Source: an uncultured Vicinamibacterales bacterium | Lineage (GTDB): Bacteria; Acidobacteriota; Vicinamibacteria; Vicinamibacterales; JAKQTR01 | Direction of reading: 5' to 3' | Assembly (NCBI GenBank): GCA_964491885.1 | Contig: CAZBIP010000001.1 | Span: 10,745 to 74,630, forward strand | Length of the DNA: 63,886 bases | Part shown: one piece after another, positions 12,879 through 19,300 of the stretch | How positions within the stretch are numbered: the first letter of the stretch is position 1 | How the letters are laid out: each line of letters begins with the position of its first letter | Made by a program: the position numbers and the translations under genes | Notes under the pieces: model-generated | Databases searched by the model: none | The model's input: only the letters and a program-made list of their open reading frames with translations | Told to the model about the DNA's origin: nothing

Positions 12879-13328
12879 TCAGTCCTGCACCTGGACCTGA
12901 ATCTGCTTCGGCTTCGCTTCCTCGCGGAGCGGGAGCTTGATGGTCAGCACCCCGTTCCTGTAGTCGGCGCTGACCTTGGTCGTGTCCACGGTCGGCGGCA
13001 GCGAGAACGAACGGCTGAACGCGCCGTACGTGCGCTCGATCCGGTGGCAGCACTCGTCCTTGATGGAGCTGTCCATCTTCTTGTCGCCGCGCAGCGTGAG
13101 GCTGTTGTTCTCGACGGTGATCTCGATCTCGTCCTTGGACATATCCGGCAGTTCGGCCTTGATGACCAGTTCGTGGTTGCCGGAGTCGTAGATGTCCACC
13201 GGCGGCACCCACGCGCCACGGCGCATCACGTCTTCCTCACCCGGCCGGTAGATCTCGCCGAGCAGGCGGTTCATGCGGTCCTGAACGGCGCTCAACTCAC
13301 GGAACGGGTCGAATCGAACGAGTGTCAT
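12879..13328 (-). CDS. Hsp20/alpha-crystallin small heat-shock protein
   Basis: 149 aa with an alpha-crystallin domain (WVPPVDIYDSGNHELVIKAELPDM...NGVLTIKLP). Confidence 0.92.
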   Translation of the reverse strand: MTLVRFDPFRELSAVQDRMNRLLGEIYRPGEEDVMRRGAWVPPVDIYDSGNHELVIKAELPDMSKDEIEITVENNSLTLRGDKKMDSSIKDECCHRIERTYGAFSRSFSLPPTVDTTKVSADYRNGVLTIKLPLREEAKPKQIQVQVQD

Positions 13329-13411
13329 GGCTTCCCTCCTCTACGGGTTTATCCTCGCGGCGGAACCGTCCAGCCACCCGGCAGCCGTCCGCGTCGCTGA
13401 CTACAACAACG

Positions 13412-13439
13412 ATATTAGCACAAATATGATTTGTGTCAA
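13412..13439 (-). promoter_or_regulatory. sigma70-type promoter of hsp20 with palindromic operator in the spacer
   Basis: The minus strand reads TTGACA-16 nt-TAATAT (-35 = 13434-13439, -10 = 13412-13417). A perfect palindrome CACAAAT-N3-ATTTGTG at 13419-13435 overlaps the -35 and the spacer. This lies in the only AT-rich patch of the window. Confidence 0.6.
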
Positions 13440-13666
13440 ATAAAATAATCTGAGTGTTGCTGTGTCATGGATGCTAAATTACCAAACGCGACAACGGCCT
13501 GAGGGCTGCCCCCGCAGCGTCGTCCGGCTCCTCCCTGGGGTGGTTGATTCGATCGAGTCCTGCTATTCTATCGAGGCCCCACCGGGCCTGGGTTTGCGCC
13601 CGTGCCCGGCCATGCCGGGGCCCAGCCGGTTCATCAGTGCTCCCAGCCAGACGAGGATGGTGCCGT

Positions 13667-14785
13667 ATGCCGCGTTACAGGATTGCGTGGTTGCCGGGTG
13701 ACGGTGTGGGCGTCGACGTCATGGACGCCGCCAAAGTCGTGCTCGACCATCTGAAGCTCGACGCCGAGTACATCCACGGCGACATCGGGTGGGAATTCTG
13801 GTGCGCCGAGGGCGACGCGCTCCCGCCGAGGACCGTCGAACTGCTGCATCACGTGGACGCGGCGCTGTTCGGCGCCATCACGTCGAAGCCGGTGAAGGCG
13901 GCGGAAGCCGAGCTGGCGCCCGCGCTGCGGGGCACCGGGCTCGTCTACCGCTCGCCCATCGTCCGCATGCGCCAGACGTTCGATCTGTACACGTGCCTGC
14001 GGCCGATGAAGGCGTACCCGGGGAACGCGCTGAACCACAACGACCAGGTGAACCTGGTCATGTTCCGCGAGAACACCGAGGACCTCTACGCCGGTGTCGA
14101 GTTCAGCCCCGTCCCGGCGGCGCTCTCCGAGACGCTGGGCCGTCTCTCGCCGGCATTCAAGCCGTTCGCGGCCCTCGCGCCGGACCAGTTCGCGGTCTCC
14201 TGCAAGATCAACACGAAGCGGGGCTCGGAGCGGATCATCGACGCCGCCTTCGCCTTCGCACGCGCGCAGAAGCGCCGCAAGGTGACGGTCGTGCACAAGG
14301 CCAACGTCGTCCGGGCGAGCGACGGGCTGTTCCTCGAGGCGGCGCGGGACGTGGCGGCCCGTTACCCGGACGTCGCCTGGGACGAGGCCAACGTGGACGC
14401 CATCACGATGTGGCTCCTGAAGAACCCGCTGAACTACGACGTGCTCGTGGCGCCGAACCTGTACGGCGACATCGTGTCGGACCTGTGCGCGCAGATGGTG
14501 GGCGGCCTCGGGTTCGCGTGTTCCGGGAACATCGGAGACAAGCTGGCGGTGTTCGAGCCGACGCACGGCTCGGCGCCGAAGTACGCGGGCCAGTACAAGG
14601 TGAACCCGATCGCGACGATCCTCGCGGCCAGGATGATGCTCGACTGGCTCGGCGAGGCGGACCTCGCGGCGCGGGTCGAGAAGGCCACGGCCGCGGTGAT
14701 CCGCCAGGGGCAGGTCCGCACCTACGACATGGGCGGCTCGAACACGACGATGGAGATGGCGGAGGCCATCGCGCGGGAGCTGTAG
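13667..14785 (+). CDS. isocitrate/isopropylmalate dehydrogenase family protein (ICDH/homoisocitrate-DH-like)
   Basis: The track ORF 13544-14785 is trimmed to ATG 13667 (MPRYRIAWLPGDGVGVDV...), which has GAGGA upstream. The motifs FRENTEDLYAGVEF and THGSAPKYAGQYKVNPIATILAARMML resemble, from memory, bacterial NADP-ICDH more than LeuB. Confidence 0.85.
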   Translation: MPRYRIAWLPGDGVGVDVMDAAKVVLDHLKLDAEYIHGDIGWEFWCAEGDALPPRTVELLHHVDAALFGAITSKPVKAAEAELAPALRGTGLVYRSPIVRMRQTFDLYTCLRPMKAYPGNALNHNDQVNLVMFRENTEDLYAGVEFSPVPAALSETLGRLSPAFKPFAALAPDQFAVSCKINTKRGSERIIDAAFAFARAQKRRKVTVVHKANVVRASDGLFLEAARDVAARYPDVAWDEANVDAITMWLLKNPLNYDVLVAPNLYGDIVSDLCAQMVGGLGFACSGNIGDKLAVFEPTHGSAPKYAGQYKVNPIATILAARMMLDWLGEADLAARVEKATAAVIRQGQVRTYDMGGSNTTMEMAEAIAREL

Positions 14786-14786
14786 C

Positions 14787-15734
14787 ATGCCGGCGATCAC
14801 CATCCACGAGGTGGGGCTGCGCGACGGGCTGCAGATCGAGGAGCAGGTCGTCCCGACCGGACGGAAGCTCGACTGGATCGGGCGGCTCGCGCGCGCGGGC
14901 GTCCCGATGATCCAGGTGGGCTCCTTCGTGCACCCGACGAAGGTGCCGCAGATGGCGGACACGGACGAGTTGTTCCGCCGCCTGGCCGATGCGCCGCCGG
15001 AGCCCGGCGTCGTGTATTCCGGCCTGGTGCTCAACGAGCGCGGCCTGGAGCGGGGCCTCGCCTGCGGCGCCGGCTATTTCTGCATGGGCGTGTCGGCCAG
15101 CGACACCCACAGCCGGAAGAACACCGGGATGGGCACGGCCGAGGCGGCCGACCGGATCGTCGCGATGGGGCGCCAGGCGCTGGCCGCCGGTCACGGCGTG
15201 CAAGTGTCGGTGCAGTCGGCGTTCGGCTGCGGCTTCGAGGGCGCGGTGCCCGCCGAGCGGGTCCTCGGCCTCGTGCGCCGGTTCGCGGACGCCGGCCTGG
15301 TGACCGTCAGCCTCGCCGACACGGCCGGCCACGCCGTCCCTGCCCAGGTCGAGGCCCTCGTCGGCGCGGTGCGCGGGCTCGACGGCCGGCTCGCCCTCAC
15401 GTGCCACTTCCACGACACCTACGGCCTCGGCCTCGCGAACGCGTACGCCGCGTTCCGCGCCGGCGTCACGGTGTTCGAGTCGGCGATCGGCGGCCTCGGC
15501 GGCTGCCCGTTCACGGCCGTCGCGGCGGGCAACGTCTGCACCGAAGACCTCGTGCACATGTTCCAGCGGATGGGACTGTGCGGCGGCGTCAGCCTCGACG
15601 GCGTCGCCGGCGTCGCGAGGGACGCATCGGCCTTCTTCGGCCGTGCGCTCCCCGGCGTCATCCACCGGACGGGTCCGATTCCGCTTGCGGGGCCGGGCAC
15701 CGTGTCTCCCTCGGGCGCTGCCCATGCGACGTAG
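14787..15734 (+). CDS. HMG-CoA-lyase family (HMGL-like) protein
   Basis: 315 aa with EVGLRDGLQ and FVHPTKVPQMAD motifs of the HMG-CoA lyase subfamily. It starts 1 nt after the upstream stop. Confidence 0.85.
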   Translation: MPAITIHEVGLRDGLQIEEQVVPTGRKLDWIGRLARAGVPMIQVGSFVHPTKVPQMADTDELFRRLADAPPEPGVVYSGLVLNERGLERGLACGAGYFCMGVSASDTHSRKNTGMGTAEAADRIVAMGRQALAAGHGVQVSVQSAFGCGFEGAVPAERVLGLVRRFADAGLVTVSLADTAGHAVPAQVEALVGAVRGLDGRLALTCHFHDTYGLGLANAYAAFRAGVTVFESAIGGLGGCPFTAVAAGNVCTEDLVHMFQRMGLCGGVSLDGVAGVARDASAFFGRALPGVIHRTGPIPLAGPGTVSPSGAAHAT

Positions 15735-15770
15735 CGCCTGGTCCCCTTCTCCTGCGAGGTGACAGCGATC

Positions 15771-16964
15771 ATGAGACTGCTCGACGGGGTCCGCGTCCTC
15801 GACTTGACCAACGTGCTCGCCGGGCCCTTCGCCACGATGCACCTGGCGCTGGCCGGGGCGGACGTCATCAAGATCGAGAACCCGGACGGCGGCGATCTCG
15901 CCCGCAAGCTCGGCAACGTGCCCAGGCTCAACCAGGACCTGATGGGCACGAGCTTCCTCGCGCAGAACGCCAACAAGCGCTCGCTGACGCTCAACCTGAA
16001 GACCGCCGACGGGCGCGCGATCTTCCTCGCCCTCGCGGCGAAGGCCGATGTCGTCGTCGAGAACTTCAGGCCGGGCGTCATGACGCGGCTCGGCCTGGGG
16101 TACGAGGCGCTCTGCGCCGTGAACCCGCGGCTCGTCTACTGCGCCATCTCGGGCTTCGGGCAGACGGGGCCCGACGCCGACAAGCCGGCGTACGACCAGA
16201 TCATCCAGGGCCTGAGCGGCGTGATGGACGTCAACGGCGACGAGCGCCTGCACCCGCTCCGCTGCGGCTTCCCGGTGTGCGACACGGTCGGCGGCCTCAA
16301 CGCCGCCTTCGCGATCATGGGCGCGCTCTACCACCGGGAGCGGACGGGCGAGGGGCAGTTCATCGACATCGCGATGCTCGATTCGATCATGCCCCTCATG
16401 GGCTGGGTCGCGGCCAACCTGCTCATCGGCGGGGTGCCGCCGGTGCCGATGGGCAACGACAACTTCACCGCGGCCCCGTCCGGCGTCTTCGCGACCGCCG
16501 ACGGCTTCATCAACATCGCCGCGAACCAGCAGGCGCAGTGGGAGGCGGTCTGCGACGAACTCGGCGTGCCCGAGCTGAAGACCGACGAGCGGTTCCAGAA
16601 GCGCGACGTGCGGAAGGCCAACCGGAAGCTCCTGACGCCCCTGCTCGAAGCGAAGCTGAAGGAGCGGCCAACGGCGCACTGGGTGGAGGCGCTCAACCGG
16701 AAGGGCGTGCCCTCGGGCGAGATCCTCGACCTCGCGGCGGCGCTCTCGCAGCCCCAGCTGGCGCACCGCGGCACCATCCAGTCGGTCGGCGAGCCCGGCA
16801 TCGGCGATCTGAAGCTCTTCAACCTGACGGCGAAGTTCGAGAAGACCCCGGCGTCCATCGACGCGCCCCCGCCGCGCCTCTCGGCGCACACCGACGCGAT
16901 CCTCGGCGAGCTCGGCTACGCGGCGGACGCGATTGCCGATCTCCGGCAGAAGGGAGTCGTCTGA
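15771..16964 (+). CDS. family III CoA-transferase (CaiB/BaiF type)
   Basis: GVRVLDLTNVLAGPFATMHLALAGADVIKIE is a typical N-terminus for this family. ATG 15771 with GAGGTG upstream is preferred over the track GTG 15759. Confidence 0.88.
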   Translation: MRLLDGVRVLDLTNVLAGPFATMHLALAGADVIKIENPDGGDLARKLGNVPRLNQDLMGTSFLAQNANKRSLTLNLKTADGRAIFLALAAKADVVVENFRPGVMTRLGLGYEALCAVNPRLVYCAISGFGQTGPDADKPAYDQIIQGLSGVMDVNGDERLHPLRCGFPVCDTVGGLNAAFAIMGALYHRERTGEGQFIDIAMLDSIMPLMGWVAANLLIGGVPPVPMGNDNFTAAPSGVFATADGFINIAANQQAQWEAVCDELGVPELKTDERFQKRDVRKANRKLLTPLLEAKLKERPTAHWVEALNRKGVPSGEILDLAAALSQPQLAHRGTIQSVGEPGIGDLKLFNLTAKFEKTPASIDAPPPRLSAHTDAILGELGYAADAIADLRQKGVV

Positions 16965-16967
16965 CCC

Positions 16968-18257
16968 ATGGGCATGACCGTTGCGCAGAAGATCCTGGCC
17001 CGGGCGTCCGGCCTGGCGTCCGTGCACGTCGGCGACGTGGTGGAACCCGCGGTCGACCTCGCGATGTCGCACGAGAACACGGCGCTCGTCATCAACCAGT
17101 TCCTCGAGGTGTACGCGGGGACGCCGCTCGAGCCCCGGGTCTGGGACCCGTCGAAGATCGCGATCATCTTCGACCACCGCGTGCCCGCGGAGTCGTCCAA
17201 GACGGCCACGAACCAGCGGAAGGTGCGGGAGTTCGCCGCCGCCCAGGGCATCGCCAAGTTCCACGACGTGCGCGGCGACCAGGGCGGGATCTGCCACCAG
17301 GTGCTGGCCGAGGAGGGCTACGACCGGCCCGGGGCGCTCGTCGTGGGCGCCGACAGCCACACGACGAGCCACGGCGCGCTCGGCGCCCTGGCCTTCGGCA
17401 TCGGCGCCACCGAAATGGCGTCGGTGTGGGCGCTCGGCCGCGCGGTCAACGTGCAGGTGCCGGCGTCGATCAAGATCGTCCTGCGGGGGCAGTTCCGCCC
17501 GGCGGTCTCCCCCAAGGACGTCATCCTCCACCTGGTCGGCCTCCTCACGGCGGAAGGCGCGAACTTCAAGGTGATCGAGTTCCACGGCGAGGCGATCGCC
17601 GCCATGCCCACGTCCGGCCGCCTGGTGCTGTGCAACATGTCGGTGGAGGCCGGCGCGACGTCGGGCATCGTGCCCGCCGACGCCGAGACCGTCCGCTACC
17701 TGCGCGAGGAAGCCGGCGTGACCGACCCGCTCGACCTCGTGCAGCCCGACCCTGACGCCGAGTACGACCGCGTCATCGAGATCGACGTCTCGGCGCTCGA
17801 CCCGCAGATCGCCTGCCCGCACACCGTGGACCACGTGAAGCCCGTCGGCGCGGTGGCAGGCACGAAGGTCCACCAGATCGTCATCGGCTCGTGCACGAAC
17901 GGCCGCCTCGACGACCTGGAGACCGCGGCCGCCAGGCTGAAGGGCCGGAAGGTGGCGGCCGGCGTCCGCATGCTGGTCTTCCCGGCGTCGTGGAAGATCT
18001 ACCGCGAGGCGATGCGGCGCGGCTACCTGGCCGACCTCATCGACGCCGGGGCCGTCATCATGAACCCGGGATGCGGGTGCTGCCTGGGCGTCCACCAGGG
18101 CGCCCTCGGCGACGGCGAGGTGGCGCTCTCGACGACGAACCGGAACTTCAAGGGCCGGATGGGCAACGCCTCCGCCGAGGTCTACCTCTGCTCGCCGGCC
18201 GTCGCGGCGGCCAGCGCGCTCACGGGCGTCATCACGGACCCGCGGCAGGAGGGATGA
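16968..18257 (+). CDS. aconitase-family dehydratase large subunit (3-isopropylmalate/homoaconitate hydratase type)
   Basis: 429 aa with GADSHTTSHGALGA, IGSCTNGR and NPGCGCCLG (Fe-S cluster cysteines). Confidence 0.9.
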   Translation: MGMTVAQKILARASGLASVHVGDVVEPAVDLAMSHENTALVINQFLEVYAGTPLEPRVWDPSKIAIIFDHRVPAESSKTATNQRKVREFAAAQGIAKFHDVRGDQGGICHQVLAEEGYDRPGALVVGADSHTTSHGALGALAFGIGATEMASVWALGRAVNVQVPASIKIVLRGQFRPAVSPKDVILHLVGLLTAEGANFKVIEFHGEAIAAMPTSGRLVLCNMSVEAGATSGIVPADAETVRYLREEAGVTDPLDLVQPDPDAEYDRVIEIDVSALDPQIACPHTVDHVKPVGAVAGTKVHQIVIGSCTNGRLDDLETAAARLKGRKVAAGVRMLVFPASWKIYREAMRRGYLADLIDAGAVIMNPGCGCCLGVHQGALGDGEVALSTTNRNFKGRMGNASAEVYLCSPAVAAASALTGVITDPRQEG

Positions 18258-18760
18258 GCATCATGGCGACTGTGGTTTACGTGGTCGGGGACGACGTGTC
18301 GACCGACACGATCTACCCGGGCCGGTTCATGGCGACCGTCCTGCCGTCCGAGACGCCGCAGTTCTGCTTCGCCGACGACAAGGCCTTCAACGGCGCGCTG
18401 CAGAAGAAGGCCGTCCCGCCGGGCGGCGTGGTGGTCGCCGGCCAGAACTTCGGCTGCGGGTCGTCGCGCGAGCAGGCGGCCTCGACGCTGAAGGGCCACG
18501 ACCTCACCGTCGTGGCGAAGGGGTTCGCCCGGATCTTCCTCCAGAACTCGATCAACCTCGGGCTGCGGACCGTCATCTGCCCGACCATCGAGGCGGCGGC
18601 CGGCGACGACCTGGAGATCACGGCGGACGCGGTGCGGAACGTGACAAGCGGGAAGGACTTCCCGTCGGTGCCGCTCCCGGCGGCGCGCCAGGCCATCATC
18701 GACGCCGGCGGCCTGATCGCGTACACGCGGAAGCGGCTGCTGGGAGCCGCGGGCCGGTAG
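18254..18760 (+). CDS. aconitase-family dehydratase small subunit (LeuD/HacB type)
   Basis: This is the C-terminal part of track ORF 17891-18760. ATG 18254 overlaps the large-subunit stop (ATGA). Motifs YVVGDDVSTDTIYPGRF and GQNFGCGSSREQA are present. Confidence 0.88.
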   Translation: MSIMATVVYVVGDDVSTDTIYPGRFMATVLPSETPQFCFADDKAFNGALQKKAVPPGGVVVAGQNFGCGSSREQAASTLKGHDLTVVAKGFARIFLQNSINLGLRTVICPTIEAAAGDDLEITADAVRNVTSGKDFPSVPLPAARQAIIDAGGLIAYTRKRLLGAAGR

Positions 18761-18826: not shown

Positions 18827-19300
18827 ATGCGCCAGATCGACGCGATGCTGCCGCTCGCCGAGGTCCGTGACCTCGCGGGCGAGGTGCGCCGCCTGTTCGA
18901 CGACCTCGATCGGGCACGGCCCCTCGACCGGCGCCTGCTGCCCGGTGTCTTTTCGCCGACGCTCGACGCCCGCGAGACGGCGGATGCCGTCGAGGTCGTC
19001 CTCGACCTCCCCGGCGTCGCGATCGAGGACATCCGCATTCTCATCCGCGGCAGCGTGGTGATCGTCGCCGGAGCGAAAGCGCCGCCCAACCCCGCGGAGC
19101 GGGCCGAAGCCAGCTTCCACCTCGTCGAGCGCGACTTCGGGCGGTTCGCGCGGGCGGTGCGCCTGACCGGGGCGTTCCAGACGACGCTGGCAACGGCCAC
19201 CCTGGCGAACGGGGAACTTCGCGTCCGCATCCCCAAGCTCGACGAGCGGCGCGGTCACGACATCACCGTGCCGGTCCGGCGCGGCGAGGCGGGCGCCTAG
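18827..19300 (+). CDS. Hsp20 family protein (divergent)
   Basis: 157 aa with an alpha-crystallin-like core (AVEVVLDLPGVAIEDIRILIRGSVVIVAG...NGELRVRIPK). Confidence 0.8.
   Translation: MRQIDAMLPLAEVRDLAGEVRRLFDDLDRARPLDRRLLPGVFSPTLDARETADAVEVVLDLPGVAIEDIRILIRGSVVIVAGAKAPPNPAERAEASFHLVERDFGRFARAVRLTGAFQTTLATATLANGELRVRIPKLDERRGHDITVPVRRGEAGA

Follow-up and report, generated by a model that had tools for sequence, protein, structure and literature searches.

A widespread five-gene operon predicted to interconvert homologous 2-oxoacids without a synthase

The stretch of DNA considered here (the window, 63,886 nt) belongs to an uncultured Vicinamibacterales bacterium of the Acidobacteriota (contig CAZBIP010000001.1 of assembly GCA_964491885.1, positions 10,745 to 74,630 of the forward strand). 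At 13667-18760, on the plus strand, it carries an operon of five genes for a beta-decarboxylating dehydrogenase, a lyase of the 3-hydroxy-3-methylglutaryl-CoA (HMG-CoA) lyase type, a family III CoA-transferase, and the large and small subunits (LSU and SSU) of an aconitase-family hydro-lyase (Table 1). Every family assignment is backed by Pfam and NCBIfam profiles, and the gene content, order, spacing and strand proposed in a first-pass annotation, made from the letters without database searches, are all exact by coordinates and profiles. The operon very probably encodes a scheme in which a 2-substituted malate and its CoA ester link two homologous 2-oxoacids without a synthase. As to substrate and direction, the sequences point, tentatively, to a homocitrate module working catabolically, from 2-oxoadipate (derived from lysine) to 2-oxoglutarate and acetyl-CoA.

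Gene layout and conservation

Table 1. Features of the operon and its immediate surroundings (positions in the window)
Feature	Position	Strand	Size and profile matches
hsp20 (HSP20/alpha-crystallin), upstream	12879-13328	-	
Divergent intergenic region, shared with upstream hsp20, with AT-rich promoter patch	13329..13666	+	sequence reading
Dehydrogenase, beta-decarboxylating, isocitrate/homoisocitrate dehydrogenase type, predicted NADP(H)	13667-14785	+	372 aa; PF00180, 286 bits
HMGL-like lyase, DRE-TIM	14787-15734	+	315 aa; PF00682, 125 bits; NCBIfam PRK05692, 265.6 bits (cut-off 246)
Family III (CaiB/BaiF) CoA-transferase	15771-16964	+	397 aa; PF02515, 413 bits
Aconitase-family LSU, archaeal LeuC/HacA type	16968-18257	+	429 aa; PF00330; TIGR01343 hacA_fam, 504 bits; TIGR02086 IPMI_arch, 508 bits
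Aconitase-family SSU, LeuD/HacB type	18254-18760	+	168 aa; PF00694; TIGR02087, 113.9 bits (cut-off 108.95)
hsp20 (HSP20/alpha-crystallin), downstream	18827-19300	+	

Successive genes are separated by 1, 36 and 3 nt, and the last two overlap by 4 nt. The 36-nt gap holds for the ATG start of the CoA-transferase at 15771, which opens at the conserved N-terminus MRLLDGVRVLD; with the alternative GTG start at 15759, the gap would be 24 nt. No terminator-like site was found by scan inside the cluster.

With the lyase as query and one genome per prokaryotic species, 465 relatives were retrieved, and the best 80 loci were examined. These 80, at 54-82% identity, are distributed over Acidobacteriota, Ignavibacteriota, Bacteroidota, Gemmatimonadota, Myxococcota, Eisenbacteria, Elusimicrobiota, Latescibacterota, Fibrobacterota and others. 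The nearest protein relatives are found in Vicinamibacterales/Acidobacteria and are labelled "hydroxymethylglutaryl-CoA lyase." By tblastn with the five window proteins (identities 54-92%), about 60 of the 80 loci, spread over at least ten phyla, hold the complete five-gene set, nearly always in the order dehydrogenase-lyase-transferase-LSU-SSU. Loci without the full set are mostly truncated contigs; in a few, the lyase-transferase pair stands alone (among them L025, L030, L033, L034, L049, L062 and L073). All-against-all clustering of the flanking open reading frames (ORFs) revealed no further conserved flanking gene in more than seven of the 80 loci; the most recurrent neighbors (at most seven loci) are LysR, oxidoreductases, a histidine kinase and HemN. 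Among the 80 loci, there is no universal transporter, regulator or feeder gene beside the operon. Because the order is nearly constant across phyla and no other neighbor is shared by more than seven loci, the five genes form a single module, self-contained and horizontally mobile, on which purifying selection is strong. The short gaps (1-36 nt) or overlaps, the near-fixed order and the spread over at least ten phyla likewise indicate one pathway and not a chance cluster. In the full-text literature outside subscription journals, no such pathway was found, as the first-pass annotation had supposed; nor did searches there, which extended to lysine degradation through homocitrate or through reductive carboxylation of 2-oxoadipate, yield a description of homocitryl-CoA, isopropylmalyl-CoA, a reversed homocitrate route or the gene arrangement itself.

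The two hsp20 genes flank the operon, followed by ymdB and xseA. The frame hsp20 ... hsp20-ymdB-xseA is found again at L001-L004 and L006, which are related loci of Acidobacteriota. Between the two hsp20 genes of L030 lies the lyase-transferase pair alone, without dehydrogenase or LeuCD. An untranslated leader of about 225 nt precedes the dehydrogenase gene. A sigma-70-like site on the minus strand (TTGACA-16-TAATAT, 13439-13412) faces hsp20. The window has a G+C content of about 72% (70-75%), and 13400-13470 is its sole AT-rich patch. A riboswitch or leader RNA that could point to an effector was not found, as 13250-13750 has no Rfam match at E ≤ 5.

Family and specificity residues of the enzymes

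The dehydrogenase has the architecture of Escherichia coli isocitrate dehydrogenase (IDH), clasp insertion included, and the catalytic set of Arg, Tyr, Lys and Asp residues is aligned (equivalents of R119, R129, R153, Y160, K230, D307 and D311). It had been read at first pass as closer to IDH or homoisocitrate dehydrogenase (HICDH) than to LeuB, and this is borne out: the motifs then quoted (FRENTEDLYAGVEF and HGSAPKYAGQYKVNP) are present and resemble E. coli IDH. The NCBIfam equivalogs are all under cut-off (AksF2, 330 bits against 540; AksF, 277 against 500; IDH, 293 against 510; iso_homocit_dh, 190 against 680). With the leuB equivalog (TIGR00169), the score is 186.6 bits for a cut-off of 353.2, and LEU2 is likewise far below. 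An identity as LeuB is excluded by the low leuB score and by the specificity helix, with RSPIV in place of RGALL and no helix of the Glu87/Leu90/Leu91 type.

Apart from a single Arg to Leu change, in the Elusimicrobiota locus L021, this helix (YRSPIVRMRQ) does not vary among 63 orthologues. It aligns with YSSPIVALR(R/K) in fungal HICDH, with IRSLNVALRQ in E. coli IDH, and with RGALLPLRK in E. coli LeuB. The residues common to the operon enzyme and fungal HICDH (LYS12) are the Tyr, the Ser-Pro-Ile-Val stretch and the catalytic Arg. The fungal reference (P0121) is 100% identical to a Saccharomyces cerevisiae LYS12 probe, and proteins related to it go by the names homoisocitrate dehydrogenase or LYS12. 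Ser113 of IDH is kept, and the position of Asn115 is an Ile in 63 of 63 orthologues. In E. coli IDH, Asn115 binds the gamma-carboxylate of isocitrate. An Ile is found at the same position in Thermus thermophilus HICDH (AIRYLRR). A 20-residue probe of the specificity helix gave no match in the PDB, and the nearest solved helix is that of 1grp, an E. coli IDH crippled by the N115L mutation. The pocket for the NADP 2'-phosphate of E. coli IDH (K344, Y345, V351, Y391) is kept, with APKYAGQYKVNP and RTYD as the counterparts of APKYAGQDKVNP and VTYD in E. coli Icd. The dehydrogenase probably uses NADP(H), which would fit a reductive role.

In the hydro-lyase, the LSU scores of Table 1 exceed the cut-offs of 386 bits for hacA_fam and 410 bits for IPMI_arch. 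The active-site motifs are aligned, including the three Cys ligands (DSHT, CNMSVE, GSCTNGR, GCGCC and NRNFKGR). The top matches in the PDB are the large subunits of isopropylmalate isomerase (IPMI; 388 bits) and homoaconitase (HACN; 368 bits) of Methanocaldococcus jannaschii. Two segments, GCGCCLGVHQG and LSTTNRNFKGRMG, are close to those of the M. jannaschii homoaconitase (GCGPCLGAHQG and LSTTNRNFKGRMG) and unlike their counterparts in the isopropylmalate isomerase of the same organism (SCSACMGSLYG and VSTSNRNFRGRQG). The SSU is below both equivalog cut-offs (HacB, 106 bits against 230; leud, 113 against 246). Its specificity loop, YPGR(F/Y)MATVLP, is kept in 61-62 of 63 orthologues, and the (F/Y)MAT stretch is unlike both loops of M. 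jannaschii (RYLVY in IPMI, PYLRT in HACN) and that of the Pyrococcus horikoshii protein (RYNLT). In this loop, an Ala replaces the Arg with which the methanogen homoaconitase binds the distal carboxylate.

In the lyase, the Arg-Asp pair is retained, as are the His-x-His metal ligands and the GGCP loop with its catalytic Cys (RDG, HFHDTYG and GGLGGCPF, aligned to 1ydo, 2cw6 and 2ftp), and its closest solved relatives are the HMG-CoA lyases 1ydo, 6nds and 2cw6. There are family-specific substitutions at otherwise conserved positions (LQNE to LQIE, GCPYEG to GCGFEG, and LxPN to LVLN). No LeuA_dimer or synthase C-terminal domain is present, and the synthase equivalogs give 23-58 bits for cut-offs of 413-950; an identity as LeuA, CimA or homocitrate synthase is excluded by domain content and by these scores. 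The substitution of an HMGL-type lyase and a family III CoA-transferase for such a synthase, noticed already at first pass, stands.

In the CoA-transferase, the PF02515 match covers profile positions 1-366 of 366. All equivalogs are below cut-off, the best being the succinate-glutarate one (310 bits against 750), followed by mesaconate (266 against 700), formyl-CoA (251 against 442) and carnitine (162 against 413). The closest solved relative is human SUGCT (9br7, E = 2e-80). The substrates of SUGCT are C5-C6 dicarboxylates. Canonical HMG-CoA lyase and SUGCT are, thus, the nearest solved relatives of the pair and share the catalytic motifs of the lyase, but the partners in the operon differ and the lyase has substitutions of its own. 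In Chloroflexus aurantiacus (Ccl/Sct), a gene for a lyase of the HMG-CoA lyase family also lies beside one for a family III CoA-transferase, and the likeness is one of family adjacency only. The two Chloroflexus enzymes, R-citramalyl-CoA lyase and succinyl-CoA:D-citramalate CoA-transferase, reportedly activate and then cleave a 2-substituted malate to acetyl-CoA and a 2-oxoacid. Unlike Ccl/Sct, the operon pair is tied to a LeuCD-like hydro-lyase and a beta-decarboxylating dehydrogenase, and its substrate is probably longer and tricarboxylic.

Genomes and neighbors of the carriers

The window's own assembly is 91.5% complete. For LeuA_dimer, IlvC and P6CDH (L-piperidine-6-carboxylate/aminoadipate-semialdehyde dehydrogenase), 29 carrier genomes were compared with 14 control genomes; 30 carriers were covered for saccharopine dehydrogenase (SDH) and 33 for LysA. 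In the window's genome, the sole PF00682 gene and the sole PF00180 gene are those of the operon; the only other aconitase-family gene, for AcnA, is situated in the same window. There is no match in it to E. coli LeuA or IlvC queries and no match anywhere to LeuA_dimer (PF08502). The LeuA_dimer domain, typical of LeuA/CimA-type synthases, is missing in 24 of 29 carriers and the C-terminal domain of IlvC in 20 of 29, and both are present in all 14 controls. By its gene content, the window's genome looks like a branched-chain amino acid auxotroph, and the carriers are probably for the most part unable to make these amino acids. A role in leucine or isoleucine biosynthesis is rejected on the missing LeuA_dimer and IlvC, and, since the module persists in likely non-producers, such an ordinary role is ruled out as its general function. 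The window's genome has ilvI- and ilvD-like fragments only, on contigs of 1.7-2 kb, and a good ilvE (contigs C661, C597 and C18).

The first-pass annotation had considered that the operon might be a plain leucine set, in a genome with no other leuB or leuCD, joined by a chance insertion of the lyase-transferase pair. No other leuB or leuCD indeed occurs in the genome, but leuA and ilvC are missing too, and the pair is no chance insertion, as it accompanies the remaining three from phylum to phylum. Its example of pyruvate and acetyl-CoA giving 2-oxobutyrate, on the way to isoleucine, is unlikely with IlvC missing in so many carriers.

An isopropylmalate-type module (2-oxoisovalerate and acetyl-CoA exchanged with 2-oxoisocaproate, either as a leucine branch without LeuA or as leucine breakdown by reversed biosynthesis) would make use of the only LeuB-like and LeuCD-like genes of the genome. 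Five carriers have IlvC without LeuA_dimer (G003, G004, G009, G015 and G027), both hydro-lyase subunits find their best solved match in the isopropylmalate/citramalate isomerase of M. jannaschii, and the dehydrogenase has Ile-Val at the Leu-Leu position of isopropylmalate dehydrogenase (IPMDH); the missing methylcrotonyl-CoA carboxylase (see below) is also in line with it. We consider it quite improbable, nevertheless, with most carriers incapable of forming 2-oxoisovalerate de novo and the leuB, LEU2 and leud scores far under cut-off. In addition, the Ser113 of IDH, the invariant Arg two residues before the catalytic Arg and the NADP-type pocket are unlike IPMDH, and the SSU loop is not of the hydrophobic YLVY form.

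Of the biotin carboxylases in the genome, three in all, the first is AccC, the second forms a pair with an mmdA/PccB-type carboxyltransferase (propionyl-CoA carboxylase-like), and the third is a fused enzyme of 1,896 aa. No methylcrotonyl-CoA carboxylase is evident in the window's genome, and therefore no canonical source of HMG-CoA. The context expected of a leucine-catabolic or ketogenic HMG-CoA lyase is, thus, missing, as liu-type neighbors are absent from all 80 loci as well. This bears on the view that two unrelated functions travel together, a true HMG-CoA lyase with an HMG-, glutarate- or acetoacetate-CoA-transferase (for leucine or ketone bodies) and a separate LeuBCD-like trio. The catalytic motifs of the lyase, all kept, its score above the HMG-CoA lyase threshold, the likeness of the transferase to SUGCT (which makes HMG-CoA and glutaryl-CoA) and the loci with the pair alone would suit it. 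Against the tight spacing and near-fixed order of the five genes in so many phyla, and without liu genes or methylcrotonyl-CoA carboxylase, it appears very improbable. The ORF of the fused carboxylase (contig C56, 9083-14773, minus strand) has an N-terminal biotin-carboxylase domain, is apparently a multi-domain fusion, and adjoins a KorAB-type 2-oxoacid:ferredoxin oxidoreductase.

Citrate synthase, AcnA and a monomeric IDH (1,254 bits) are encoded elsewhere in the genome. The tricarboxylic acid (TCA) cycle has, thus, a complete front end without the operon and, with Asn115 lost in the dehydrogenase, the role of IDH and aconitase of that cycle is excluded. A citrate-type module could still be a second, CoA-conserving link between oxaloacetate plus acetyl-CoA and 2-oxoglutarate, through citryl-CoA, citrate and isocitrate, similar to citrate cleavage in the reductive TCA cycle. 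Such a link is favored by three traits of the dehydrogenase, namely its clasp insertion, its NADP residues and its tree position with E. coli IDH; in chemical terms, citryl-CoA is the closest structural analogue of HMG-CoA, and 2-oxoacid:ferredoxin oxidoreductases and a GltD-like NADPH oxidoreductase lie nearby in some lineages. It is, however, very improbable: Asn115 is invariably Ile, with the crippled IDH mutant as the closest solved helix, the SSU is without the Arg at the distal-carboxylate position of the homoaconitase loop (which corresponds to Arg580 of aconitase), and the genome already has the three enzymes.

LysA is over cut-off in the window's genome, which has DapA too. The same holds for LysA in 22 of 33 carriers, and the five from Elusimicrobiota are all among them. 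Lysine is predicted, from these genes, to be made via the diaminopimelate route. Lysine biosynthesis by the aminoadipate route is excluded, with LysA and DapA present and with the linked P6CDH an oxidizing aldehyde dehydrogenase.

Genes of lysine catabolism accompany the operon in Elusimicrobiota. In L021, genes for P6CDH (739 bits, cut-off 730), an LKR-like protein and SDH lie upstream of the operon on the same strand. The SDH combines Sacchrp_dh_NADP and Sacchrp_dh_C and is of the glutamate-forming type; the AlaDH/PNT-type protein is read as a homologue of the lysine-forming saccharopine dehydrogenase (LKR-like). As the hydro-lyase of L021 diverges, 201 Elusimicrobiota genomes were sampled; the operon occurs in five of them, and the flanks of the other four carriers were fetched. 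The order is dehydrogenase-lyase-transferase-LSU-SSU-LKR-SDH in L092, and it continues after the SSU with LKR-SDH-P6CDH in L094 (gaps of about 24-33 nt). In L091 and L093 (also L065), the SSU is followed by a class III aminotransferase. Genes of the saccharopine route are, thus, contiguous and on the same strand in three of the five Elusimicrobiota carriers, with P6CDH in two of those three; two of the genomes have gaps of about 24-33 nt, and the third has gaps of about 165-255 nt. In L091-L094, the hydro-lyase subunits are 64-74% identical to those of the window, and the exact motifs of the window are present (YPGRFMATVLP, YRSPIVRMRQ and GSAPKYAG). Sacchrp_dh_C exceeds 279 bits in only three of the 201 genomes, all operon carriers (three of five carriers against none of the 196 others; Fisher exact, about 7.5e-6). 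P6CDH oxidizes an aldehyde, and aldehyde dehydrogenases run oxidatively. Because of this, and of LysA in those genomes, the Elusimicrobiota clusters are catabolic.

Sacchrp_dh_C has a match in 115 of the 201 Elusimicrobiota genomes (G029-G227), apart from the top three mostly at about 95-170 bits. These lower-scoring proteins differ from the true saccharopine dehydrogenases of the top three and are probably polyamine enzymes of the carboxynorspermidine-dehydrogenase type. Over all carriers, P6CDH is over cut-off in 12 of 29, for one of 14 controls. SDH orthologues occur in seven of 30 carriers, in three of these beside P6CDH, with no proximity to the operon shown. The class III aminotransferase by three Elusimicrobiota operons is GABA-transaminase-like and under all cut-offs; it differs from the LAT and ornithine transaminase types near other LKR-SDH pairs and gives no clue to the substrate. 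Adjacent LKR-like and SDH genes are very widespread in metagenomes (L095-L174), followed sometimes by P6CDH, L-lysine 6-transaminase or ornithine aminotransferase, which suggests that saccharopine-type lysine catabolism is commoner in bacteria than usually assumed.

There are other recurrent neighbors. Three types of 2-oxoacid:ferredoxin oxidoreductase occur just upstream of the operon in several lineages, with two-subunit KorAB-type enzymes in Holophagaceae and Gemmatimonas. This linkage is compatible with, and no proof of, a conversion of 2-oxoglutarate to succinyl-CoA that would regenerate the CoA donor. GltD-like NADPH oxidoreductases neighbor the operon in three loci and a divergent LysR in seven. 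In one Bacteroidota/Ignavibacteriota lineage (L007, L045, L054 and L068), an extended synteny consists of a Cys/Met pyridoxal phosphate (PLP) enzyme, a VorB-type oxidoreductase (alpha, beta and gamma), the operon and hemN. The PLP enzyme, which is methionine-gamma-lyase-like, has an N-terminal extension.

Such a context would suit a citramalate-type module, from 2-oxobutyrate, CO2 and NADPH over 3-methylmalate, citraconate, (R)-citramalate and (R)-citramalyl-CoA to pyruvate and acetyl-CoA, the reverse being an energy-saving route to 2-oxobutyrate. The PLP enzyme, on the same strand upstream in L007, L045, L054 and probably L068, would release 2-oxobutyrate; the only pair known to be described biochemically of an HMGL-type lyase and a family III transferase is the citramalate pair of Chloroflexus; and the SSU loop has no Arg. 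Yet the PLP and VorB genes lie 340-700 nt from the operon, in that single lineage with its extended synteny, and the PLP enzyme reaches 325 bits for a cut-off of 550. A methyl substituent fails to explain the Ala/Thr of the SSU loop and the invariant Ser96 and Arg100 of the dehydrogenase, isoleucine synthesis is out in most carriers, and operons with identical motifs are joined to lysine genes in Elusimicrobiota. A citramalate substrate is, therefore, in our view unlikely. Taken together, the evidence weighs against the citrate reading and more weakly against the citramalate reading.

Proposed reactions and their meaning

In the homocitrate module favored here, the NADP(H)-dependent dehydrogenase would carboxylate 2-oxoadipate reductively (with CO2 and NADPH) to homoisocitrate, and the LeuCD-like hydro-lyase would convert this through cis-homoaconitate to homocitrate. 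The family III CoA-transferase would then form homocitryl-CoA and succinate, with succinyl-CoA as the probable donor, and the HMG-CoA-lyase-type enzyme would cleave homocitryl-CoA to acetyl-CoA and 2-oxoglutarate. In Elusimicrobiota, the feed would run from lysine over saccharopine, aminoadipate semialdehyde and 2-aminoadipate to 2-oxoadipate and into the operon. Because no thioester is hydrolyzed, the steps would be left near equilibrium and the module would be reversible. The reactions of citrate synthase, aconitase and IDH, with their established thermodynamics, provide the analogy. The elongating direction would be possible too, with supply and removal of metabolites setting the direction. 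We infer the substrate, the CoA donor, the physiological direction and the use of lysine carbon in the window's genome; from the identical specificity motifs, we also infer a substrate common to all of these operons. Between the two readings put forward at first pass, the catabolic one is preferred and the biosynthetic example is not. For the substrate, the evidence points to the homocitrate/homoisocitrate type and not to the citramalate, isopropylmalate, HMG and citrate analogues that had been listed first.

Several observations weigh against the homocitrate assignment. By score, the dehydrogenase belongs to none of the HICDH equivalogs (AksF2, AksF and iso_homocit_dh), and Arg85 of T. thermophilus HICDH has no counterpart in it. 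The operon dehydrogenases fall tentatively into their own clade beside E. coli IDH, and not with fungal HICDH, in a tree that is sparse, with few references and long branches. Because of this grouping, the likeness of the SPIV helix to fungal HICDH is taken as functional; it may be convergent and is no proof of orthology. The missing Arg of the SSU loop counts against citrate or isocitrate and, less strongly, against homocitrate, and the lyase does clear the NCBIfam threshold for HMG-CoA lyase. The contexts are uneven as well. P6CDH is lacking in 17 of 29 carriers; in seven genomes, the window's own and those nearest to it (G001-G004, G007 and G025), we found no P6CDH, LKR or SDH, and no source of 2-aminoadipate or 2-oxoadipate is visible in the window's organism. 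The operon lies within the fetched flanks of none of 80 LKR-SDH loci from metagenomes, the physical linkage to lysine genes is limited to one phylum (Elusimicrobiota), and the context with the methionine-gamma-lyase-like enzyme and VorB would suit 2-oxobutyrate.

The closest known parallel to the homocitrate module is the upper alpha-aminoadipate pathway of fungi, Thermus and archaea, in which the same three transformations connect 2-oxoglutarate plus acetyl-CoA with 2-oxoadipate. The operon hydro-lyase falls in the hacA family and the dehydrogenase helix resembles fungal LYS12. That pathway has a homocitrate synthase, whereas the operon has a CoA-transferase and an HMGL-type lyase, so that the thioester would be conserved and the conversion reversible. 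The operon differs further in the NADP-type, IDH-like dehydrogenase, in the SSU without the homoaconitase Arg, in the diaminopimelate lysine route of the carriers and in the proposed catabolic direction. The part of the reductive TCA cycle in which citrate is cleaved (NADP-IDH, aconitase, and citryl-CoA synthetase/lyase or ATP-citrate lyase) follows the same logic of reductive carboxylation, isomerization, CoA activation and retro-Claisen cleavage. It activates with ATP, whereas the operon would activate by CoA transfer; the operon lyase has the DRE-TIM/HMGL fold and not the citrate-synthase or CitE fold of the reductive TCA enzymes, and it lacks the residues for binding isocitrate and citrate.

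None of the five enzyme families is new; their combination is, and the pathway is probably new too. Annotation pipelines name the genes HMG-CoA lyase, CoA-transferase, isopropylmalate dehydratase and isocitrate/isopropylmalate dehydrogenase, and one pathway is, thus, scattered over the leucine, ketone-body and TCA maps, with probable branched-chain amino acid auxotrophs made to resemble partial leucine producers. The five enzymes are soluble family members amenable to coupled assays and, if the scheme is true, they would provide a reversible, energy-neutral module of C2 transfer for engineering, for example for the production of adipate or glutarate.

If true, the operon would be a new route for shortening or elongating 2-oxoacid chains, with the irreversible synthase replaced by a lyase and a CoA-transferase and the thioester conserved, and it would probably be a new catabolic route for lysine and 2-aminoadipate. 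More tentatively still, it may supply, in heterotrophs belonging to more than ten phyla, the lower half that was missing from an aminoadipate pathway run wholly in reverse, by which lysine carbon would enter the TCA cycle anaplerotically; where a 2-oxoglutarate:ferredoxin oxidoreductase is encoded nearby, the succinyl-CoA donor would be regenerated from the product and the cleavage would be self-priming and ATP-free. Such a route would place a CO2-fixing step in catabolism and avoid the loss of two CO2 via glutaryl-CoA. It would be widespread in abundant, mostly uncultured lineages of soil, sediment and wastewater (Acidobacteriota, Ignavibacteriota, Gemmatimonadota and others).

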